Source: Candidatus Berkelbacteria bacterium CG_4_9_14_3_um_filter_39_23 (GTDB taxonomy: Bacteria; Patescibacteriota; UBA1384; GWA2-35-9; CG2-30-39-44). From it: DNA of 44,375 bases. Of this stretch, positions 23,809 through 35,811 are shown piece after piece. How positions within the stretch are numbered: the stretch's first letter is position 1; every line of letters starts with the position of its first letter. The notes beneath the pieces were generated by a model. The model ran no database searches, was not told the origin of the DNA, and worked only from the letters and a program-made list of their open reading frames with translations. Made by a program: the position numbers and the translations under genes. The stretch is from the NCBI GenBank assembly GCA_002789815.1, contig PFTZ01000046.1, forward strand, positions 1 through 44,375. Reading direction: 5' to 3'.

Positions 23809-24020
23809 GTGGTATGTTTGTACCACATCAAGATTTAAATACGCCAATATTCAAAATTCCGTAAGTTTGGAATTTGTATCTTGAAATTTAAAATTTTTCC
23901 GTCATCAGGCGGAACTTATATCTTTATGTGGTTGTAATACGCGCCAAATTTGTTTTTTATAACAAATTAGAGTTTTTTACATTTAACTCTGTTTTGAGCA
24001 AAAAAATAGAGATCAAATTT

Positions 24021-25484
<1,464 letters not shown>

Positions 25485-25581
25485 AGGGAGAATTTTAATC
25501 CCAACATAAAGTTGTTGGGAAGGTCGGAATCTCGCAAGAGATTTATTACTGCGTCGTATTACAACCACATTAGGATATAAC

Positions 25582-25606
25582 AAAAACCGCCGATAAGGCG
25601 GTTTTT
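25582..25606. terminator. Bidirectional rho-independent terminator after 16S
   Basis: aaaaaccgcc-gataa-ggcggttttt has an A-tract on one side and a T-tract on the other. It can therefore also terminate the convergent minus-strand ORF 25672-25884. Confidence 0.75.
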
Positions 25607-25671
25607 GAATTTTCAATTTCCAATAATCAATTTTCAAAATGGCAATGTAAAATTAAAAATAAGGGGCAATT

Positions 25672-25884
25672 TCAAGATCTTTGTTTTGCCCAGTTGACGA
25701 TGGTTAATGTTAGCAAAACCACTAAAAAAATTATCAGATATAGAACGACTGAGCCCCAAGCAGTGGAGTACAAAAATTGTTTCTCGCCTTTTACAAGCTC
25801 GTCAAACTGGTTGATGTAATAATAATACCGCACAAAAGGCAAGAGAACGAAACTGGCAATTATACTGGTTAAAATTGTTTTCAT
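25672..25884 (-). CDS. Hypothetical small membrane protein (70 aa, 2 TM)
   Basis: ORF with two hydrophobic segments. I recognise no family. Confidence 0.3.
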   Translation of the reverse strand: MKTILTSIIASFVLLPFVRYYYYINQFDELVKGEKQFLYSTAWGSVVLYLIIFLVVLLTLTIVNWAKQRS

Positions 25885-26087
25885 AATAAAATTATCTGAC
25901 CTCCGAAATCCGATATCTGGTATCTGAACCTTGGTGGTGTGTTTTGAATTCTGCTCGTGCGGGCAAAAAGACCCTTCTCCGTAAAACTACAGACGGTTAA
26001 AAGGGGGTTGGAGGGAAGAAATTTTTGCTCGCCCTCGCTTTTCCGTCGCCAAATTTCGTGCCAGTGAAACTGGCGCGCCGCCTAAAT

Positions 26088-26621
26088 CTATTTTACCGTA
26101 TTAAGCAATTCGTTATTATAATCTCGCATTGTATCTTTATTCGTCGGTTTATACAAAATATTTTCTTTGTATTTTAAATAAACTTCGCTATCGGAATGGT
26201 CGGTTAAAGTTATATCATCTTTTACAACTTCCAAAACAACATTTCTATTTTTATTTTGAGTGATTTTTGCATGGCTGAAAGCGTCAATATAAACCATATT
26301 TTCCCATTTGTCTAACATTTTGAAATGATGAATGTTTTCTGACCACGCAAGCGGGACAACATGATGAAGCTCAAAACCAAGGGTTTTTACGACCGTTTGT
26401 TTTACAAAATACTGATATTTTTCGTTTAACGACCTGTCCAACCTCGTTGTTGTCTCGCTAAAACTATTTTGCCCCTCTTTTAATACTAATTGTTCGCCTC
26501 GCACTTCAAAATATACTGTCTGATTTAAAAGATAATATACTTGGACGATTTTGTTGTGCCAGTTATGAAAATCTCTTTTACTAGGTTTTGATCCAGAAAA
26601 ATTTTTTGGTTTTAATTCCAC
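26088..26621 (-). CDS. HNH (beta-beta-alpha-Me) nuclease domain protein; C-terminal part of a stop-interrupted putative restriction endonuclease
   Basis: Has 'FELHHVVPLAWSEN' ... 'NMVYIDAFSHAKI' (His-His...Asn...His pattern). GTG start. It is in the same frame as ORF 26625-27314, separated by TAA plus one codon. Confidence 0.7.
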   Translation of the reverse strand: MELKPKNFSGSKPSKRDFHNWHNKIVQVYYLLNQTVYFEVRGEQLVLKEGQNSFSETTTRLDRSLNEKYQYFVKQTVVKTLGFELHHVVPLAWSENIHHFKMLDKWENMVYIDAFSHAKITQNKNRNVVLEVVKDDITLTDHSDSEVYLKYKENILYKPTNKDTMRDYNNELLNTVK

Positions 26622-26624
26622 TTT

Positions 26625-27314
26625 TTATATTTCTATAACAGATCTTCTTTGTGTTGGAGTTAAATTTCTGTATTCCTTGATAAGTTCAACTGCTTTATCC
26701 GTATTGATATTAAAACTAGATTCTGTGCCAATGGCAGAAACAAAAAACATATACTCATAAATACTGATTTTATCTATATCGTATTCTTTATCTCTTAAAA
26801 TATCTAAAATAATATCAATGTATCCGCCGAGCAAACTATCTATTCCTTTAGAAAAGATAAAATATTTGTCCAGAATAGTTTTTGCCTTGATTAACTTCAA
26901 GCCCTGATTACTTATTGAAACATATTTAACATTTTGCCTAGAAAAAGAATCCGTTGGTTCTTTTTTCTTGTCATATCGTTCAATCAATCCCATTCTGTGA
27001 AGATCAACAAACAAATTTTTTCGCATTGCGTCTTGAGTGCCTATACCTGCTTTTTGTTTAGCTTCATTACAAAATTGAGCATATAAAAACTCTTCGGAAT
27101 AATTTTCTGGTCTCTTGGAAATGTCGGTCGTCCGAATTGTCATCAAATTTTGATTCGGGGCGTATTTATCCAGCAATATTAAAATATCAATGATTTGCGT
27201 CATCACATAACGATTATGTTCCGAAGAAGGAGAGCCACGATACTTCTCGTTTCTTGTTCTAGAATCAATAAATTCTAGAGCTTTATTTCCTGAATTTATA
27301 TTATTTATTGCCAT
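26625..27314 (-). CDS. Unknown 229-aa protein, probable DNA-recognition part of the restriction enzyme
   Basis: Overlaps the upstream methyltransferase gene by 14 nt. I see no nuclease motif. 'LFVDLHRMGLIERYDKK' looks like a winged-helix segment (weak). Confidence 0.55.
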   Translation of the reverse strand: MAINNINSGNKALEFIDSRTRNEKYRGSPSSEHNRYVMTQIIDILILLDKYAPNQNLMTIRTTDISKRPENYSEEFLYAQFCNEAKQKAGIGTQDAMRKNLFVDLHRMGLIERYDKKKEPTDSFSRQNVKYVSISNQGLKLIKAKTILDKYFIFSKGIDSLLGGYIDIILDILRDKEYDIDKISIYEYMFFVSAIGTESSFNINTDKAVELIKEYRNLTPTQRRSVIEI

Positions 27315-28083
27315 ATTTAATCAAGTTTCTTTTTGCTAATTTAACATAGTTTTTATTATTGTCGGAACAAATAAAATTTCTTTTTAATTTTTTTGCGGCT
27401 ACAGCAGTTATGCCGCTTCCGACAAAACAATCTAAAACAAGATCGCCGACATTTGAACTTGCTTTTATAATTCTTTCCACTAATTCTAGTGGTTTAGGTG
27501 TAATATGAGACATTTTAGGAGTTTTGCCGTTGATTTTATTTTTATGCCTCTCGCTTGTGATATGCCATACTTCACCGCAAAGCCTGCCTTTCGGATTAGG
27601 AAACCACCTTTTGCCGTCTTTTAAAATCCCTTTTATCTTTGCGTGTTCAATTCTATCAGTTGATTCATAGGGTACACGAACATCGTCATAATTAAAAATA
27701 TGATTTTCGCCCTTGGTAAAAAACAAAATTGATTCTTGCCCGTTGCTGAATTTTTGTTTTGCCCCGCCCAATCCGTCTCTTTTATCCCAAGTTATCCAAT
27801 TTTGAAAAAATAACCCTTTCGTCACTAAATAAAAAAGAATAAAAGCCGAATTGTAGGGGGTGTTAAAAATATACAAACTGCCGTTTGATTTTAATTTAGG
27901 GATTAAAGCGTCAATCCAGTGAAATGTAAAATCAAAAAAATCTTTTTCGCTCTCAAAACTATCCCATTTTGCCTTATTCAAATTATATGGCGGATCAATA
28001 ACGGCGAGATTTATTGATTTATCATCAATTTTATTTAAAAACTCAAGGCAATCTAAATTGTAAATTTCGTTTATTTTTTTCAT
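27301..28083 (-). CDS. Beta-class N6-adenine/N4-cytosine DNA methyltransferase (DPPY type)
   Basis: Motif IV 'LAVIDPPYNLN' is N-terminal and motif I 'VLDCFVGSGIT' is C-terminal, which is the beta permutation of the N6_N4_Mtase family. Confidence 0.9.
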   Translation of the reverse strand: MKKINEIYNLDCLEFLNKIDDKSINLAVIDPPYNLNKAKWDSFESEKDFFDFTFHWIDALIPKLKSNGSLYIFNTPYNSAFILFYLVTKGLFFQNWITWDKRDGLGGAKQKFSNGQESILFFTKGENHIFNYDDVRVPYESTDRIEHAKIKGILKDGKRWFPNPKGRLCGEVWHITSERHKNKINGKTPKMSHITPKPLELVERIIKASSNVGDLVLDCFVGSGITAVAAKKLKRNFICSDNNKNYVKLAKRNLIKYGNK

Positions 28084-28086
28084 AAC

Positions 28087-28932
28087 TTAAAATAAAGATT
28101 TGAGTTTTAAATTCATTACTCTTTCGTAACTTTTTGATATTTCATAACCGACATAATTTCTTTTTAATTCTTTGGCAATTTTTAATGTTGTGCCAGAACC
28201 AGCAAAGGGGTCCAAAACCGTATCGCCGACATATGTAAATAATCTAACACAACGCCTAACGATTTCTTCGGGCATTATTGCCGAATGCTCGCCAAAGGCC
28301 AAATCGCCTTTCCCCGGAATTGGTATGTTCCAAATTTGTTTTGTAAATTCTACCCATTCTTTTTCAGTCAATTTGCTTTTTTCTTTTATATCTTTTGGCA
28401 AATTATTTTCGGAAGGTCCATCTTTTACATAAACAGTAATAAATTCAATTGTATTTTGAGCATAAAAATTTCTTGGGTAAGGATAACTACCAAACATCAA
28501 TTTTTTACTCGGATTTGTTCTGTTCCAAATAAATACATCAAGCAGGAATAGTCCCGTGCCGTTCAATATTGAGTGTTCAATATCGCTGTTAATGTCAAAT
28601 ATGTGGCGATTAAAATGTGTGTCTAAAACCTTTTTGAACATTGGCATTAGTGGAGTGTTGACGACTAATTTTCCATTTGGCTTTAATACTCTTTCGCATT
28701 CTTTCCAAACCTGCAACATTTCATTAACATATTTTTTATAATCCGCAATGTCGCCAATTTGTCCACGAATTTTTTCTGACCTTTTATCTTTTTGATAACC
28801 GTCAAGGGAATAATCTTTTATATTGAAATATGGCGGACTAGTAACGACCAATTGGACAGAATTGTCTGGCAATTCTGTCATTTTTCTTGCGTCTTTAAAA
28901 AATAATTTGTTTAAATAATCCATAAAATCCAT
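28087..28932 (-). CDS. Beta-class N4-cytosine/N6-adenine DNA methyltransferase (SPPY type)
   Basis: Motif IV 'LVVTSPPYFN' is N-terminal and motif I 'VLDPFAGSGTT' is C-terminal. SPPY is more often seen in m4C enzymes. Confidence 0.9.
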   Translation of the reverse strand: MDFMDYLNKLFFKDARKMTELPDNSVQLVVTSPPYFNIKDYSLDGYQKDKRSEKIRGQIGDIADYKKYVNEMLQVWKECERVLKPNGKLVVNTPLMPMFKKVLDTHFNRHIFDINSDIEHSILNGTGLFLLDVFIWNRTNPSKKLMFGSYPYPRNFYAQNTIEFITVYVKDGPSENNLPKDIKEKSKLTEKEWVEFTKQIWNIPIPGKGDLAFGEHSAIMPEEIVRRCVRLFTYVGDTVLDPFAGSGTTLKIAKELKRNYVGYEISKSYERVMNLKLKSLF

Positions 28933-29039
28933 TTTATTAAATTATCAACGCTAACTTCAAGGGCTTTTGCAAGTTTATTAAGTGTGTCTAATGTTGGATT
29001 TTGATTTTTGCCATCTTCAATTTTTCGGAAGTCAGATTT
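28913..29039 (-). pseudogene. N-terminally truncated Cro/C1 (XRE)-type HTH remnant (controller-protein-like)
   Basis: The minus-strand frame reads 'KSDFRKIEDGKNQNPTLDTLNKLAKALEVSVDNLIKWILWII*'. This matches the C-terminal half of HTH_3 domains (..isriErGkrnPsldtLlklakaLgvsvdeL). There is no start codon or N-terminal helices. The frame begins at the tRNA-Ile 3' end and overlaps the M gene ATG. Confidence 0.5.
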
Positions 29040-29116
29040 TGGTGGGCGCGGATGGACTCGGACCATCGACCTCTTCATTATCAGTGAAGTGCTCTAACCA
29101 ACTGAGCTACGCGCCC
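29040..29116 (-). tRNA. tRNA-Ile (anticodon GAT), CCA encoded, non-canonical T-loop
   Basis: The reverse complement folds as GGGCGCG-TA-GCTC-AGTTGGTTA-GAGC-A-CTTCA-CTGATAA-TGAAG-AGGTC-GATGG-TCCGAGT-CCATC-CGCGCCC-A-CCA. The T-loop is TCCGAGT, with C where the near-universal U55 is expected. Confidence 0.85.
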
Positions 29117-29180
29117 ATTATAATCTCAAATTGTGCTTGTTGTTATTTTCTACTCGTCTTTTTATTCCCGTATCTTCGCC

Positions 29181-29300
29181 TGTCATTCCCGTGAAAACGG
29201 GAATCCAGACAGGGCTGTATCCCCAATCCGAAGCGCTTCGCTTTCGGTTGAGGATGACAAGGGGGTGGAATGATATTTGCGTAAGTTGCGCAATATTCTA
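29181..29300. repeat. Dispersed GATGAC-module repeat, copy 2
   Basis: Hairpin 'cattcccgtgaaaacgggaatc' (inverted gtcat module), then the core 29219-29265, which is identical to 54-100. The tail 'aatgatatttgcgtaagttgcgcaat' is related to 129-160. Confidence 0.8.
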
Positions 29301-29414
29301 AAAAATCAAGAATCTAGCATCTAAGTATAATTCTAGCAATTTTGGGGAAAAAATGCAATAATATGGTCCAGAGGATAGAAACCAGATATCAGTTTTCCGA
29401 TAAAATTTGAAGCA

Positions 29415-29894
29415 ATGCTTTTAACTACCCATATTTTAATCGGGGGAGCGATCGGACAAGCGGTGGGCAATGCGCCACTTGGTTTTGCATTAGGCGCAGT
29501 ATCTCATTTTGCGCTGGACGCTATTCCGCATTTTGATCCGGGAATATGGAGTGATGTCACCAAGGAAAGTGGCGAAAATATTTGGGACAAAAAAATATGG
29601 GCTTTTGTCGCGGTGGATTTATTAGCAACACTCGGATTACTAATCGTGTTGCTCCCGCAAAGTTTATCGCTTCCATTTATCGCTGGCGCTTTAGGTGGCG
29701 CGTCAGTTGATTTGATTGACAATGTGCCATTTTGGCAAAGGAAAATTCACCAAACAAGAATTGGCAAACAGATTGGCAAATTTCACAATTCACTTCATTT
29801 TGTCAAAAAGGAAATCCTGAGAAAAAATGCCATGGCGCTTCTTGTCGTCCAAGTTGTAATTATCGGATTGATTTTTTGGCTGATTGAGCTATAA
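29415..29894 (+). CDS. Membrane protein, possibly YdjM/DUF457-like membrane-bound hydrolase
   Basis: 159 aa, 4-5 TM. N-terminal 'MLLTTHILIGGAIG' and 'HFALDAIPHFD' His-rich motifs resemble that family (from memory). No clear SD. Confidence 0.4.
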   Translation: MLLTTHILIGGAIGQAVGNAPLGFALGAVSHFALDAIPHFDPGIWSDVTKESGENIWDKKIWAFVAVDLLATLGLLIVLLPQSLSLPFIAGALGGASVDLIDNVPFWQRKIHQTRIGKQIGKFHNSLHFVKKEILRKNAMALLVVQVVIIGLIFWLIEL

Positions 29895-29903
29895 TAATTC
29901 CAA

Positions 29904-30107
29904 ATGTTCACAAGAATTTTAATTTTTATTGCTTCTTTGGTTTTGGGCTACCTCGGTCTTCGGTATAATTATTGGGTGGTTAAAACCGTTGGCAAAAGTC
30001 AGTGGGTTGAAAATAAATTCGGCGCTGGTATGACATTTGCGGTTTACCAGCTAATGGCTTTGATTATCATTATACTTGGTTTTGCCCACTTGATTGGGGC
30101 TATTTGA
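29904..30107 (+). CDS. Hypothetical small membrane protein (67 aa, 2 TM)
   Basis: ORF with two hydrophobic helices, starting 10 nt after the previous stop. Confidence 0.3.
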   Translation: MFTRILIFIASLVLGYLGLRYNYWVVKTVGKSQWVENKFGAGMTFAVYQLMALIIIILGFAHLIGAI

Positions 30108-30123
30108 AATAATATTTTATCAT

Positions 30124-30195
30124 GGGCTCGTAGTTCAATGGTAGAACGCTTCATTTGCAATGAAGAGGTTGGGGGTTCGATTCCTCTCGGGTCCA
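30124..30195 (+). tRNA. tRNA-Cys (anticodon GCA), no encoded CCA
   Basis: Folds as GGGCTCG-TA-GTTC-AATGGTA-GAAC-G-CTTCA-TTTGCAA-TGAAG-AGGTT-GGGGG-TTCGATT-CCTCT-CGGGTCC-A. Confidence 0.9.
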
Positions 30196-30208
30196 AAAAT
30201 ATACATCC

Positions 30209-30237
30209 TTGACAAAAGCATCAGGGATTTTTAAAAT
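30209..30237 (+). promoter_or_regulatory. Sigma70-like promoter with ~120-nt structured leader
   Basis: TTGACA (30209-30214), a 17-nt spacer, then TAAAAT (30232-30237). The leader contains an imperfect hairpin (ggagttgttgttgag / ctaacaacagttcc) whose loop carries the 17-mer 30274-30290, which is shared with 23593-23609. Confidence 0.55.
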
Positions 30238-30364
30238 AGAAATAGGAGTTGTTGTTGAGCGCGTTTTTGTAGCAATTTGCAGTAAAAATGGCACCTAACA
30301 ACAGTTCCAAAAAGTAGTTGGTCGAGCTATTTATTGTTTTTAAATAATAAAAGGAAAAATAATT

Positions 30365-31057
30365 ATGGATTCATTATCAAATTGGACAACCTCAATTCAA
30401 GATGCTTTACAAGTAATCGTCACCAGAGTGGTTGATTTTATTCCTAATATCTTTGGCGCAACCTTAATTCTAATTTTAGGTTGGGTGCTGGCAGCGCTCC
30501 TTGAGTGGGCTGTGGAAAATATCTTGCGCGCAACTGGTCTGCAAACAGTATTTGAAAGAGCCAAGATAGAGGATATTATTAAAAAAGCTGATACCAAGAA
30601 AGATACATCGGGCGTTATTGGTTCAGTAGTAAAATGGATTGTTATTCTGGTAGCGGTGATGGCAGCGGCTGACACATTGCAAATGCCACAGATTGCCGGC
30701 TTTATCAATGATATTTTAGGCTATGTACCAAGTGTTGTTGGCGCAGCAGTTACTTTGGTTGTGGGAGTAATTTTCGCTCATTTTATGGCGAATGTTATTA
30801 AAGGGGCGGTGACTGCCGCTCAACTAAATTTTGCAGATTTGGCAGCTTCAGCTACCAAATATGCGATTTTGGTTTTTACGATATTAGCAGCGCTGTCTCA
30901 AATGGGCATTGCGACTGTTTTTTTACAGACCTTATTCACTGGGTTTGTTGCAATGATTGCTATTGCTGGCGGATTAGCTTTTGGTCTTGGCGGACAAGCG
31001 TTCGCTAAAGATTCTCTAGAGAAGTTTAAAAAAGAAGTCGAAATCCACAGCAAATAG
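30365..31057 (+). CDS. Membrane protein with repeated 'conserved TM helix' segments (mechanosensitive-channel-associated type)
   Basis: 230 aa, about 5 TM, internally repeated. RBS 'aaaggaaaaataattatg'. The family call is from memory of TM_helix repeats. Confidence 0.5.
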   Translation: MDSLSNWTTSIQDALQVIVTRVVDFIPNIFGATLILILGWVLAALLEWAVENILRATGLQTVFERAKIEDIIKKADTKKDTSGVIGSVVKWIVILVAVMAAADTLQMPQIAGFINDILGYVPSVVGAAVTLVVGVIFAHFMANVIKGAVTAAQLNFADLAASATKYAILVFTILAALSQMGIATVFLQTLFTGFVAMIAIAGGLAFGLGGQAFAKDSLEKFKKEVEIHSK

Positions 31058-31153
31058 TTTGCTATTCAGCTTCCTCACAAGGAGGGGAGAAATTAAGGGC
31101 TATAAAGCTAGCAATTTTTGTATTACAAAATAGAGTATGTCTCGCAAGGTTAT

Positions 31154-31189
31154 ACCAGTAGCAAGAAGGTTTGCTTGGTAATTTTTTTC
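31154..31189 (+). terminator. Rho-independent terminator of the 30365-31057 gene
   Basis: Stem accag(ta)gcaa / ttgcttggt with a 2-nt bulge, then 'aattttttt'. Confidence 0.55.
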
Positions 31190-31193
31190 TTAC

Positions 31194-31223
31194 TTGACAA
31201 GCAATTGTATAATTTGATACAAT
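31194..31223 (+). promoter_or_regulatory. Strong sigma70-like promoter upstream of 23S
   Basis: TTGACA (31194-31199), an 18-nt spacer, then TACAAT (31218-31223). Confidence 0.6.
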
Positions 31224-31315
31224 ACATTTAATGGTAGAGAGAAAAGTAGAAGTAAAAATCAGAAAGGGGGTAAGCGCTTGATAGCAGTTTGAGTTTCGTT
31301 TTTCAGATTGTCATC

Positions 31316-31337
31316 AACCGCTTAATGCGGTTTTTTT
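31316..31337 (+). terminator. Intrinsic-terminator-like hairpin inside the 23S leader (also a reverse GATGAC module)
   Basis: aaccgc-ttaat-gcggtt followed by a 7-T run. On the minus strand it reads hairpin + 'ttgatgacaa', i.e. a member of the dispersed repeat family. Confidence 0.5.
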
Positions 31338-31372
31338 CTCGTCAATTTGTGTATTATTCAGGCGAGGTAAAA

Positions 31373-31385
31373 GTACTTTAACAAT
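31373..31385 (+). promoter_or_regulatory. boxA-like antitermination element (23S leader)
   Basis: 'gtactttaacaat' carries the same CTTTAACAA core as 23799-23807. It is preceded by 'aggcgag' at 31360-31366. Confidence 0.6.
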
Positions 31386-31591
31386 ACGGTTTGATTGTCA
31401 ACAACAATCAAAGTAAGTGTAATAAGAGATCACCAAAAGTGTATGGTGGATGCCTTGGCAAAAAACACCGATGAAGGACGTAGTAGCCTGCGATAAGCTT
31501 CGGGTAGCTGGCAAACAAGCTTTGATCCGAAGATGTCCGAATAGGGCAACCTAACTGCGTAAACCGCAGTTGATCGTGCTTCGCACCCAAT

Positions 31592-31726
31592 CTCAAAATT
31601 TAAACCTTCCCGAAAGCTATCGCTAAAGGGCAGGCAAATCTCAAAGTGACCCCGAACAAATTACTTCGCAATTTTACGGGGTAGACAATGTAAAATTTTA
31701 AATTTTGATTTTGAGTGCGTAGTACG
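31592..31726 (+). other. 23S intervening sequence A (domain I, ~135 nt hairpin insertion)
   Basis: It lies between 'ccgaatagggcaacc...' and 'ggtacccgctgaactgaaacatc', where E. coli has about 40 nt. The base pairs cccaatc (31585-31591) with gattggg (31727-31733). The lower stem is made of 'tctcaaaatttaaa' / 'tttaaattttgattttgag'. Confidence 0.6.
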
Positions 31727-31779
31727 ATTGGGTACCCGCTGAACTGAAACATCTTAGTAAGCGGAGGAAAATAAAACAA

Positions 31780-31876
31780 TAATCCCGTTTTCGGGATAGT
31801 GTTTCGCGTCTCGACTTCAAAATGTTAAATTTCAATTTTTGAGATTTGAGATTTGAATTTTGAGATTGCGAAGCAT
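31780..31876 (+). other. 23S intervening sequence B (~97 nt)
   Basis: It interrupts the stretch equivalent to E. coli 'GAGGAAAAGAAAUCAACCGAGAUUCCCCCAGUAGCGGCGAGCGAA', which reads here as 'gaggaaaataaaacaa[insert]tgtgattccttaagtagcggcgagcgaa'. It contains 'tttgagatttgagatttgaattttgagatt'. Confidence 0.6.
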
Positions 31877-32903
31877 TGTGATTCCTTAAGTAGCGGCGAG
31901 CGAAAGAGGAAAAGTCTAGTATTAACGACGATTGAAATTATTAGCAGAATAAACCTGGAAAGGATAACCAAAGCGGGTGATAGTCCCGTAAGCGAAAATT
32001 GTTTCAATTTAAGTTAATCCGATCCCTGATTTTTATTGGGGTGGCAAGTACTGTCAGACACGTGAAATCTGGCAGGAAGATGGGTGGATCATTATCCAAG
32101 ACTAAATATGTTTTTTGACCGATAGTGAACTAGTACCGCGAGGGAAAGGTGAAAAGTACCCCTAGCCGGGGAGTGAAATAGTACCTGAAACCATACACTG
32201 ACAAGGAGTCGGAGCGCGTTTTGCTTAGGCGAAGCGTGTCACGGCGTGCCTTTTGCAGAATGAGCCAACGAGTTGTCATATTTTGCGAGCTCAAGCTTTT
32301 TTAAGGCTGAGGCGTAGGGAAACCGAGTGTTAATAGCGCGATTAGTAAAATGTGGCAGACCCGAAACCGGGTGATCTATCCATGGTCAGGCTGAACTTCG
32401 CCGAAAGGCGGTAGGGAGGGCCGAACACACCAGCGTTGCAAAACTGGGTGATGAATTGTGGATAGTGGTAAAATGCCTATCGAACCCGGAGATAGCTGGT
32501 TCTCCTCGAAATATATTTAGGTATAGCGTTCCACTGCAACCCTGCAGGTAGAGCACTGGTTCGTGTACGGCGGAGAAATTCGTTGGCACGAGTCAAACTC
32601 CGAATAGCAGGACTCAAAGAGTGGAGCAGTCAGTACGTGAGGGCTAAGCTTCATGGTACAAAAGGGAAACAGCCCAGATCGCAATCTAAGGTCCCAAAAT
32701 AAGATTTAAGTGGGAAAGGAAGTAGTCTACCACAGACAAATAGGAGGTTGGCTTAGAAGCAGCCATCCTTTAAAGAAAGCGTAACAGCTCACTATTCGAT
32801 TTTTCTCAACCCGCCTTTGGCGGGAAGAGAGGTAGATTGCGCCGAAAATTCAACGGGGCTAAAATCTTTACCGAAGATGCGGATGCCATTGCTACGCATT
32901 GGA

Positions 32904-33173
32904 AGCATCAAATAACAACATATAAATAACAAACAAATATCTAATTACACGACTTACGTAAATATCTTTCCGCGTTGTCATTGCAAGGCTCCGCCAGCTG
33001 GCGGAAACAAAGTAATCTGGCAAAATTATATGAGATTGCCACGCCTGTTGGCTCGCAACGACATAATACGTAAGTCGTGTAATTACCAAAATTCAAAATG
33101 ACTGAAGCATATAAATATTTTTTACTTTAGAATTTAGGATTTGTTTGGTTATTGTTTCTTGAAATTTGGAATT
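32904..33173 (+). other. 23S intervening sequence in helix 45 (~270 nt)
   Basis: The extended stem pairs gccattgctacgcattgga (32885-32903) with tccattgcatagcagtggc (33174-33192), where E. coli has a short helix-45 hairpin. Inside is a perfect 19-nt inverted repeat, 32942-32960 / 33067-33085, plus gtcat/gatgac-type modules. A smaller ~31-nt expansion is also present at about 32797-32830. Confidence 0.65.
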
Positions 33174-33822
33174 TCCATTGCATAGCAGTGGCGTGGTAGA
33201 GGAGCGTTCTTTAAGCAGCGAAGCTTCACTGTGAAGTGGGGTGGAGTTTAAAGAAGTGCGAATGTTGGCATGAGTAACGAATTAGCCCGGCGAGAAACCG
33301 GGCCACCAAAAGTCTAAGGTTTCCCCCGCAACGATAATCGACGGGGGGTTAGGCGGGAGCTAAGCTTGCGAAAGCGATGCACAGCAGGTTGATATTCCTG
33401 CCCTGCCATATTTTTAAGATATTATGACGCATTTTTAAGCTATTTTATTGCTATGACTATGTAATAAAATGGGGAGAGAGTGACTAGAAAAGTAATATCT
33501 TGCTAAATTTATGGCATCCGTACCGCAAACCGACGCAGGTAGACGGGTTGAGAATACTAAGGTGATCGAGCAAACTCTCGTTAAGGAACTCGGCAAAAAA
33601 ACGTCCGTAACTTCGGAATAAGGACTGCCCGCCTCTTCGGCGGGCCGCAGCGAACGTTTTCCGGGCGACTGTTTATCAAAAACATAGCTCCATGCTAACC
33701 CGCAAGGGGATGTATATGGGGTGATGCCTGCCCAGTGCTGGAAGGTCACGAGGATTAGTGATACCGTGCTACGCACGGTTGAGCTTTGAATCTAAGCCCC
33801 AGTGAACGGCAGCGGTAACTAT

Positions 33823-34519
33823 TAAATAACGGTTAGTAGTTATAAAATCTGGCCAAATGCTGGAAACTCTTGTCAGGTTATTGGTAGGATTAGAAAATTA
33901 TCTAAACCTAACAATCCAATAAATAGAGACAATCAGCAGGAAAGATTTCATAAAAGGAGAAAAATGGATAATAATATTCAAAAAATTCCCGAGAGAATCG
34001 GATGGTATTTTGCGGAATTTGTTGATGGTGAAGGTAGTTTTAATGTTTCACTTAGAAAAAAGCCTGATTATACAATGCATTGGCAAATATGCCCAAGCTT
34101 TAATATTTCACAGAAAAACAGAGCAATTCTTGCCTTATTTAAACATCATTTAAATGTGGGTATATTAAGCGGAGAGCAGATGGATTGTATGCATACGAAT
34201 AGTGAATCACAAAATGCTAAGTGGTATCATTATCCCATTTTTTAATAAATTTAATTTTTTATCTCCAAATCAAAAAAGAAACTTTTCAATATTTAAGGAA
34301 ATAATTAGGTTAATGGACACAGGGATTCATCTGAGTGAAGAAGGATTCAATAAGATTATTGACCCCAGAGAAATTCTAAACAAAGGTAAAGGTAGAAAAC
34401 GAAAATATGAAAAGGATAATTTAAATTATGAAAAATCCCCAGAGACTATACGCCAGAATCGCCAATAAGGCGATATGATATAGTCCGATCTTTATGGAGA
34501 CATAAAGCTAACATAAATG
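33823..34519 (+). mobile_element. Group I intron in 23S helix 69 (insertion after the U equivalent to E. coli ~U1917)
   Basis: The exons 'cggtaactat|' and '|aaccgttctatggtagcgaaattcc' join to match E. coli 'CGUAACUAU|AACGGUCCUAAGGUAGCGAAAUUCC'. The 5' exon ends in U and the intron ends in G (34519). The core element 'gatatagtcc' (34477-34486) resembles the conserved P7/P3 strand of group I introns. A terminal hairpin lies at 34490-34507. Confidence 0.8.
33964..34468 (+). pseudogene. Single-motif LAGLIDADG homing endonuclease gene, frameshifted
   Basis: SD 'aaaggaga' precedes the ATG at 33964. The LAGLIDADG motif is 'FAEFVDGEGSF'. The family-like sequence continues in three different frames: '..ALFKHHLNVG' (frame 1), 'YIKRRADGLYAYE' (frame 3, 34161-34199), then 'IVNHKMLSGIIIPFFNKFNFLS...' (frame 2, to 34468). 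Confidence 0.8.
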
Positions 34520-34933
34520 AACCGTTCTATGGTAGCGAAATTCCTTGGCGTGTAAGTTACGTCCCGCACGAATGGCATAACGGTCTGGAAACTGTCTCAA
34601 CGAGAGGCTCGGTGAAATTACACTGCCGGTAAAGATGCCGGTTACCCGCGGCAAGACGAAAAGACCCCGTGGAGCTTCACTACAGCTTGGCATTGGTTTG
34701 CTTTGCTAAATGTTTAGTCATAGGTGGGAGGGTGTGTGTAGCACTTGTGCTATACGTATTCAACAATGAAAGACCACCCTTGTAGCGTAGCAAATCTAAC
34801 CCTCGTTAAAACGAGGAGACAGTGTTTGGCAGGTAGTTTATCTGGGGCGGATGACTCCTAAAGAGTAACGGAGTCGCTCAAAGGTTGGCTAGTCCCGTAT
34901 GGAAATCGGGATGATAGTGTAAAGGCAAATGCC

Positions 34934-34964
<31 letters not shown>

Positions 34965-35014
34965 CTGCGAAAGCAGGACTTAGTGATCCTCTATCTTTGA
35001 ATGACAGAGATAGA

Positions 35015-35051
<37 letters not shown>

Positions 35052-35612
35052 GATCGCGCCCAATAGCTCACATAGACGGCGCGGTTTGGCACCTCGATGT
35101 CGGCTCAACGCATCCTGGGGGTGGAGCAGCTCCCAAGGGTTTGGCTGTTCGCCAATTAAAGCGTTACGCGAGCTGGGTTCAGAACGTCGCAAGACAGTTC
35201 GGTCTTAATCTGCCGTGGGCGATCAAAACTTGAGGGAAATTCTCCTTAGTACGAGAGGACCAGGAGGAACAAGCCTCTGGTGTACCAGTTGTGCCATCAG
35301 GCGCATCGCTGGGTAGCTATGCTTGTATGGATAACCGCTGAAAGCATATAAGCGGGAAGCCATGCCCAAGATTAGGTTTTGTTTGAGATCCCCCAAAGAC
35401 GATGGGGTTGATAGGTTAGCGGTCTAAGTCCCGTAAGGGATTCAGCCGTCTGATACTAATCGATCGAAGATTTTTTATTACAACTTTGAATTTTTATAAT
35501 TCAAGGTAAAACTTACTTTGATTTTTGTTGACAATTTCGGCATTTTGATTAAATCGCAAGAAGCGAAATTTTTGTATCTAAGTTTTTGGTTGGTTGCGTA
35601 TAAAAATTTTCT

Positions 35613-35748
35613 TCTGGTGATTTTAGCGAACAGGAAACACCCGTTCCCATTCCGAACACGGCTTCGCCTCTTCGGCGGATAAAAGTTAAGCTGTTTTGCG
35701 CCAATGATAGTTACCTCGCAAGGGGTTGCGAAAGTAGGTCATCGCCAG
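35613..35748 (+). rRNA. rrf: 5S ribosomal RNA with an apparent ~21-nt internal hairpin insertion
   Basis: Helix I pairs tctggtgat with atcgccag(a). It has 'cccgttcccattccgaacacgg' and 'aagttaagc', 'gcgccaatgatagt' and 'gcgaaagtagg'. The length is about 136 nt against about 116-120 nt normally. Confidence 0.85.
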
Positions 35749-35811
35749 TTTTTTTGTACTTCAAAAAGTAGGCTAACCCACAGCGGGTCTATTCTTTTTT
35801 TGCAATAATTT

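Follow-up and report, generated by a model that had tools for sequence, protein, structure and literature searches.

How a bacterial ribosome can accommodate an insertion of 697 nt within the loop of helix 69 of its 23S rRNA, the helix that links the two subunits as a bridge at the decoding centre, and what has become of the homing endonuclease gene (HEG) carried by this insertion, are the questions raised by a contig of Candidatus Berkelbacteria. The window considered here, positions 1-44,375 of the forward strand of contig PFTZ01000046.1 (GCA_002789815.1), spans 44,375 nt, and all coordinates refer to it. Searches with Rfam located 16S (24019-25482), bacterial 23S (31423-35479; 2168 bits) and 5S rRNA (35613-35750), with the 23S match about 1.1 kb longer than the Rfam model. 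Since the DnaB protein encoded in the window is ~100% identical to DnaB of Candidatus Berkelbacteria bacterium CG2_30_39_44, the host is considered a bacterium of the Candidate Phyla Radiation (CPR)/Patescibacteria; one of the matching contigs derives from a groundwater metagenome (PRJNA229517). In sister lineages (P0129-P0132), DnaB is 94-96% identical. The insertion very probably represents a mobile group I intron at 23S position 1917 (L1917), which has become fixed in the host population and has lost its homing function while the ribozyme has been kept.

The insertion and its predicted fold

Alignment of the 23S gene to E. coli rrlH with MAFFT places a single insertion, 33823-34519, directly 3' of E. 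coli U1917 (GGCCGUAACUAU|AACGGUCC), that is between E. coli 23S positions 1917 and 1918 and within the helix-69 loop. A preliminary description of the locus had given these borders and the exon junction restored upon removal exactly, and its placement in helix 69 is equally borne out. The same description spoke of an I-CeuI-type target region, of which the helix-69 site stands, while I-CeuI itself belongs to L1923, so that the intron of the window represents a separate L1917 lineage. The insertion differs from the 23S exons in base composition (31% vs 46% GC) and is further defined by covariation; all intron features described below lie on the plus strand. L1917 is a documented site of introns and LAGLIDADG genes (PMC1995217; PMC11270868).

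The fold was assessed by comparison with relatives found through the encoded protein, repaired for the two frame changes described in the next section. The repaired protein had 1702 relatives at E <= 1e-5, the best 120 of which, with 151-210 aa, were listed, and a scan of one genome per species yielded 80 loci encoding such relatives. In nearly all 80 loci the open reading frame (ORF) starts 140-190 nt downstream of the end of the exon ...GTAACTAT, which ties the protein family to L1917. As a full MAFFT alignment of 46 intron cores extends to 711 columns owing to variable P2, P5, P8 and P9 extensions, covariation was measured in an alignment of 254 columns, in which 46 L1917 introns had been relieved of the ORF and variable loops, projected on the window and realigned. 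The tested structure was hand-written and compared with 500 shuffles and with controls in which the pairing partners were slid by 1-3 columns. In this core alignment, 87.0% of the cells are paired as opposed to 71.2 +/- 0.4% in shuffles, double-sided changes occur in 49 pairs and the covariation score reaches 0.410 vs 0.134 in shuffles; none of the 500 shuffles attains any of these measures, and pairing in the slid controls amounts to 33-49%.

At the 5' splice site, P1 consists of the 5' exon strand UAACUAU (33816-33822) and the strand GUAGUUA of the internal guide sequence (33836-33842), with U33822.G33836 as the splice-site wobble. The U.G pair is present in all 46 introns, and P1 is paired in 99.7% of the cells with five invariant pairs and no double-sided change among its seven pairs. 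A second strand of the guide, AACGGUU (33828-33834), forms the 7 bp of P10 with the 3' exon strand AACCGUU (34520-34526). P10 is paired in 47% of the cells of the core alignment, where its register is shifted by one extra window base between the guide segments; tested sequence by sequence, the helix has a mean length of 5.57 bp vs 3.32 +/- 0.23 bp for introns paired with exons of different sequence. Accordingly varied is the segment upstream of GUAGUU, which changes together with the 3' exon (AACCGU/ACGGUU, AACGGU/ACCGUU, AACGAU/AUCGUU and AAUCGU/ACGAUU). The intron ends in omega-G (G34519), a terminal G being found in 43 of the 46 relatives, and the splice-site rules noted in the preliminary description, a 5' exon ending in U33822 and an intron ending in G34519, thus hold.

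P2 is absent, as P1 and P3 are separated by 6 nt only. P3 (CUGGC 33849-33853 with GCCAG 34452-34456) is paired in 100% of the cells with double-sided changes in four of five pairs, and P4 (UGCUGG 33858-33863 with 33933-33938) equally in 100%, with double-sided changes in two of six pairs including an exchange between UA and GC in 11 sequences. P5 (33868-33871 with 33926-33929; 96.7% paired, double-sided changes in 4/4 pairs) encloses the extended arm P5a/b/c (33878-33922). P6 (33939-33941 with 34436-34438) is fully paired (100%) with one of three pairs changed on both sides, followed by P6a (33946-33953 with 34426-34433; 85.6%, 8/8), out of which the ORF is looped. The 5' strand of P7, a G (34442), a bulged A and GACUA (34444-34448), pairs with 34481-34486 and is part of the R element CAGAGACUAUA, situated inside the ORF at the codons ...PETIRQ; 99.3% of the P7 cells are paired and two of its six pairs show double-sided changes, among them the rare compensated variants GACUG/CAGUC and GACCA/UGGUC. 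P8 (AUCGCC 34458-34463 with GGCGAU 34469-34474; 86.8%, 6/6) holds the stop codon of the HEG in its loop. The S element GATATAGTCC, that is GAUAUAGUCC, which comprises J8/7 and the 3' strand of P7 (34478-34487), is nearly invariant in the 46 relatives. It precedes, as had been noticed beforehand for a core element and a terminal hairpin, the P9 hairpin CUUUAUG-GAGA-CAUAAAG at 34490-34507 (34490-34496 with 34501-34507; 100% paired, double-sided changes in six of seven pairs), the L9 loop of which is of the GNRA type in every intron of the core alignment and reads GAGA in the window. For P5, a register drawn by eye (UUGUC/GACAA) was rejected; the register supported by the family is UCUU/GAGA.

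Without the ORF, the core of the window intron folds with -57.8 kcal/mol (z = -5.8), and the minimum free energy fold recovers P4, P5a-c, P6, P6a, P7, P8 and P9. Judged from sequence and covariation, the insertion is a group I intron with a complete predicted core, as the preliminary description had proposed: P1 with its U.G pair, omega-G, P10 and a P3-P9 core with compensatory changes in 46 relatives are all recognized. It is best seen as an IC1-like intron without P2 that belongs to the L1917 lineage.

In such a fold, the guide (33828-33842) would pair with both exons through P1 (UAACUAU/GUAGUUA) and P10 (AACCGUU/AACGGUU) with the U.G pair at the cleavage site, while the P3-P8 core would form the P3/P7 pseudoknot and hold the guanosine site in P7. 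An external G would then attack 3' of U33822 and the freed 5' exon subsequently 3' of G34519, so that ligation would restore GGUAACUAU-AACCGUUC and leave helix 69 intact in the ribosome. The single-motif LAGLIDADG gene looped out of P6a is by now a pseudogene through two one-base losses; the homing function would have been lost, while the ribozyme, needed by the host, would be retained.

In the P5b stem (33885-33910), GUAGG ... CCUAAC is similar to the 11-nt GNRA-tetraloop receptor UAUGG/CCUAAG and could dock the GAGA loop of P9. This version of P5b is shared only by one further locus, L017, whereas most relatives have UACU...AGUGACAAU.

The endonuclease gene and its two frame changes

The LAGLIDADG_1 homing endonuclease pseudogene spans 33964-34468 on the plus strand, as delineated by Pfam, three-frame tblastn and alignments to 37 and 120 relatives. 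Directly after the 5' strand of P6a, a Shine-Dalgarno-like AAGGAG (33954-33959) precedes the start codon ATG at 33964, in agreement with the earlier observation of a ribosome-binding site of its own. The relatives with an intact gene have 160-185 aa; here, an uninterrupted frame of about 160-185 codons is absent, the longest ORFs comprising 93 and 88 aa. ORF1 (33964-34245, with stop codon UAA at 34243-34245), which encodes 93 aa, matches Pfam LAGLIDADG_1 (PF00961) with 32.6 bits over profile positions 4-61, while the repaired product of 168 aa reaches 58.7 bits over profile positions 4-101/102 at a Pfam cut-off of 23.1; the profile search that the preliminary description had suggested thus recovers the family in both.

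Searched with five intact relatives by tblastn, the locus yields collinear pieces in frame 1 (33985-34167; residues ~6-66), frame 3 (34149-34199; residues 61-77) and frame 2 (34199-34465; residues 78-165). The family reading consequently leaves frame 1 for frame 3 at ~34155, passes into frame 2 at 34199 and ends with the stop codon TAA at 34466-34468 in L8, with two -1 frame changes within ~50 nt, each equal to one lost base, just as two frame corrections had been postulated from the letters. None of the three reading segments contains an internal stop. The first change lies within 34149-34160, as delimited by tblastn and profile scores, and is best placed at 34149-34155 (UUUAAAU), just before a conserved Cys codon. 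Against a profile of the 120 relatives, a shift at this position scores 254.3 bits (...HHLNCGYIK) or 254.2 bits (...HHFKCGYIK), as compared with 250.9 bits for a shift after the GGG run (...HHLNVGYIK) and 107.5 bits for ORF1 alone. The existence of the first shift thus stands, but not its assigned place after GGG, since 34149-34155 scores slightly better and is probably the position of the change. The second change, GAA|UAG at 34197-34202, restores ...YAYE-IVNHK... when A34199 is read again; here tblastn and alignment support both the position and the IVNHK reading put forward beforehand.

All 34 residues that are invariant in a 38-sequence alignment are found in the repaired product, and its DGEG motif has the acidic residue, E23. 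On the other hand, the Gly of '(L)AG' in the LAGLIDADG helix, found in 119 of 120 relatives, is replaced by Glu (G18E), a substitution that may affect dimer packing, and K104Q equally falls on a site conserved in 119/120 relatives. Deviation at two or more of the 36 columns of this type is observed in only 2 of the 120 relatives. The nearest solved structures are I-SmaMI (2e-33), the I-OnuI family, I-Vdi141I (3e54, a 169-aa rRNA-intron enzyme), I-MsoI and I-CeuI, based on which the product would be a single-domain enzyme of the homodimer type.

Gene and ribozyme overlap at the end of the ORF. P6a', P6', P7, P3' and P8 supply the final codons (...KSPETIRQNRQ*), whereby the last ~40 nt of the HEG serve at the same time as these intron elements, with P8 included by one half. 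Translation of the R element gives the conserved C-terminal peptide ESSETIRQ, which is common to relatives because the ORF end doubles as intron core. Further upstream, a stretch including P6 and the 3' strands of P5 and P4 translates in the window to NRDNQQER, a peptide also found at the N-terminus of several relatives, which, given this origin of the peptide, are presumably over-extended ORF calls.

Population evidence and alternative explanations

Whether the gene is truly decaying can be approached from its distribution among public assemblies. A public assembly collection has ORF1 in its exact 93-aa form in 71 of its indexed blocks, and the 90% cluster of ORF1 comprises three alleles, found on 39, 8 and 13 contigs, all with 93 aa and the same out-of-frame tail; one allele carries S29L at a family-invariant residue. 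Furthermore, 18 independently assembled contigs from different samples, produced by MEGAHIT (k141/k127) and SPAdes (NODE), were compared over 6.3 kb. All 18 equal the window in length and have both shifts, with single-nucleotide differences elsewhere, and as the frameshifts are identical in all independent contigs, they are considered real. In ten large ORFs of the neighbourhood, Pfam domains are matched over their full length (DnaX, DnaB, PNPase, UvrD, Mur ligase, P-type ATPase and others), which argues that the assembly is not prone to indels. An intact close allele of the HEG was not found among 5.8 billion proteins, in which the best match is 61% identical. The view that the gene is degenerating rather than misread is thus upheld by the same shifts in 18 contigs from at least two assemblers and by substitutions at near-invariant residues.

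Search of the metagenomes of the Joint Genome Institute (JGI) with the spliced-junction 31-mer did not find an intronless 23S of the same lineage; the 42 intronless 23S matches obtained are assigned to other lineages because all are <= 81% identical to the 23S of the window. The missing intronless allele is consistent with fixation, absence of evidence being a weak argument. That the intron must still splice and that the HEG decayed after fixation, as had been stated at the outset, is what we infer from the intact core, the absence of polymorphism among 235 core bases and the failure to find an intronless allele of the lineage.

Several points weigh against a fixed, splicing intron with a decaying gene. 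The P5a-c columns of the core alignment are unreliable (71-76% paired, with the arm varying in length), because this alignment was built from sequences stripped of ORF and loops and projected onto the window. At the Rfam gathering threshold, the window contains no group I match: RF00028 (Intron_gpI) scores 24.9 bits (E = 0.0023) against a gathering score of 50 and covers only 34369-34507 in the 3' half, so that the Rfam scan called for in the preliminary description gives a match, but one below threshold. The low score is explained by the ~470 nt of ORF that sit inside the P6 region; one relative, L045, obtains 43.9 bits (E = 4e-9) with the same model. Among the 18 contigs, polymorphic sites number 4 in 462 nt of the HEG-only part (8.7 per kb; three of them non-synonymous in the repaired frame), 0 in 235 nt of the ribozyme core (0 per kb), 7 in 3360 nt of the 23S exons (2.1 per kb) and 11 in 1372 nt of neighbouring coding sequence (8.0 per kb), a contrast which rests on 4 sites and is not statistically significant, although it points in the direction expected if the HEG evolves neutrally within a ribozyme under constraint. 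As the three reading segments lack internal stops, the decay would have to be recent or some expression retained. Splicing, finally, would follow from the conserved structure only.

The alternative that survives best, at a low probability, is that the insertion is not spliced, being either retained in the mature 23S rRNA or excised in an RNase III-like manner without ligation, whereby a fragmented 23S rRNA would be left. As a precedent, Everett et al. (1999; cited in PMC11270868) reportedly described a member of the Chlamydiales whose 23S rRNA contains a group I intron that is not spliced, and the 23S gene of the window has other insertions that resemble intervening sequences (IVS). However, no helix of the catalytic core is disrupted, nor are the U.G pair, omega-G or P10, and compensatory changes have preserved these elements in different phyla. 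The 235 core bases are free of polymorphism, and a 697-nt insert or a break in the intersubunit bridge formed by helix 69 would be expected to be harmful.

Still less probable is that the frame changes are two programmed -1 ribosomal frameshifts, at U_UUA_AAU (34149-34155) and near GAA-UAG (34197-34202), which would act as a conserved throttle for low output of an endonuclease or maturase. An in-frame slippery heptamer coincides exactly with the first shift, slippage there yields ...HHLN-CGYIK... with family length and the conserved Cys at a profile score (254.3 bits) equal to any repair, and the stop-free segments as well as the preservation of the shifts in all alleles would be explained. 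Heptamers of the type X_XXY_YYZ are, however, frequent in this AT-rich DNA, with 12 per kb and 9 in the intron alone, and U_UUA_AAU at the first change is for this reason treated as a coincidence. Moreover, a slippery sequence is missing from the second site (C GAA UAG), hardly any product would result from two successive shifts of low efficiency, near-invariant residues are affected by G18E, K104Q and the S29L allele, and a stimulatory structure was not seen, though none was looked for. If such a throttle existed, a fixed rRNA intron could retain some residual activity in homing or as a splicing helper that is harmless to the host.

Sequencing or assembly errors in homopolymer runs, behind which the endonuclease gene would be intact, are the least credible alternative and are rejected: both sites do lie in short A/T runs (TTT 34149-34151; AA 34198-34199) and the three segments are free of stops with all invariant residues of the 38-sequence alignment kept, but the shared shifts and equal length of 18/18 contigs from two assembler types despite nucleotide differences elsewhere, the three 93-aa alleles with one and the same tail, the intact ten neighbours and the lack of a close intact allele speak against it.

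A fixed intron that keeps its ribozyme while its endonuclease decays has a place in the homing cycle, which by textbook knowledge leads one to expect HEGs that degenerate while their introns are retained. Goddard and Burt in 1999 are said to have described the life cycle of homing endonucleases as invasion, fixation, degeneration and loss; the window shows, for one lineage only, a probably fixed intron with inactivating HEG mutations and a kept ribozyme.

Known systems, spread and further features of the rRNA genes

The design of the intron is already known from published L1917 introns; what is particular is the state of its HEG. Introns at L1917 have been described in Synechococcus sp. C9 (743 nt; endonuclease of 181 aa) and Thermotoga subterranea (774 nt; endonuclease of 168 aa), both IC1-like, with a complex P5, without P2 and with one LAGLIDADG motif in an ORF that starts in P6, reads through P7, P3 and P8 and stops in P9 (Haugen et al., 2007; PMC1995217). 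By published description, the window intron shares with them the site, the size class, the lack of P2, the complex P5 arm, the ORF starting from P6 and the single motif, but differs from them in an ORF that stops in L8 instead of P9, in the two frameshifts and G18E, and in its CPR host. In CPR bacteria, position 1917 corresponds to the insertion site 23IS6, which predominantly contains LAGLIDADG_1 genes, whereas the characterised enzyme I-ShaI belongs to the neighbouring site 23IS7; with Rfam, 45% of the CPR 23S insertions were assigned to the group I introns (Tsurumaki et al., 2024; PMC11270868). The window intron agrees with 23IS6 in host group at the phylum level, in site and in protein family, and a search of the text of PMC11270868 gave no mention of frameshifted or pseudogenised HEGs.

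The same HEG family, with 45-50% identity, also occurs at L1917 in phyla outside the CPR, where some of the 23S genes concerned lie on closed 3-Mb chromosomes, by which the element is seen to have spread across phyla. Chromosomes of Gammaproteobacteria/Ca. Foliamicus with this family include loci L026, L030, L038, L040, L058, L060, L077 and L078, and further non-CPR loci belong to Aminicenantes (L033, L069), Chloroflexota (L047, L065, L071, L073) and WOR-3 (L052). Several of the non-CPR loci have an additional 300-800 nt ahead of the normal 3' exon sequence, pointing to a putative second intron just downstream. The intron RNA most similar to that of the window is found at L017 (69% over 700 nt), where the protein is 51% identical, while the most similar protein is encoded at L002 (62%). 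This hints that ribozyme and HEG may have partly separate histories, or that guides matched to the exons may inflate the RNA similarity.

From Coxiella burnetii, Raghavan et al. (2007; cited in PMC11270868) reportedly described Cbu.L1917, a group I intron that occupies position 1917 of the 23S gene, too; one of the two Coxiella introns is reported to lack the canonical omega-G, in contrast to the window intron, which ends in G. Cbu.L1917, which is not known to carry an endonuclease gene, would then represent the end state of the HEG decay seen in the window.

The wider importance of the locus is low, and its main value lies in correct annotation: an intron at 33823-34519 is to be entered for the 23S gene in this lineage of Berkelbacteria, and the 93-aa 'LAGLIDADG protein' of gene callers is to be labelled a pseudogene fragment. 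Beyond that, the locus provides a clean, population-backed case of a homing endonuclease in mid-cycle in a CPR bacterium, with the ribozyme kept and the endonuclease decaying. The 46-sequence alignment presents the L1917 intron/HEG pair as common to Patescibacteria, Gammaproteobacteria, Chloroflexota, Aminicenantes and WOR-3 and might be useful for mining meganucleases.

The same 23S gene contains a second large insertion of 290 nt (32901-33190) after E. coli position 1181 in the helix-45 region. It forms a single long stem with a perfect 19-bp helix (UAAUUACACGACUUACGUA / UACGUAAGUCGUGUAAUUA; z = -5.3), is without an Rfam match and looks like an intervening sequence of the RNase III type rather than an intron; IVS-like insertions have been described at the CPR sites 23IS2 and 23IS4 (PMC11270868). 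Further insertions relative to E. coli are located in 23S domains I-II at 31556-31603 (48 nt), 31627-31710 (84 nt), 31779-31874 (96 nt) and 32798-32828 (31 nt), and deletions of 9-30 nt affect E. coli positions 1358-1367, 1406-1435, 1444-1465, 1563-1571, 1586-1599, 1704-1723 and 2787-2803. A gap of 5.9 kb (25483-31422) separates the 16S from the 23S gene, and the rRNA operon is therefore split; this gap contains four minus-strand and two plus-strand ORFs together with tRNA-Ile(GAT) (29040-29116, minus strand) and tRNA-Ala(TGC) (30123-30196, plus strand). Finally, the 5S match (35613-35750) extends over 138 nt against a model of 120 positions, so that the 5S gene, too, seems to contain extra bases.

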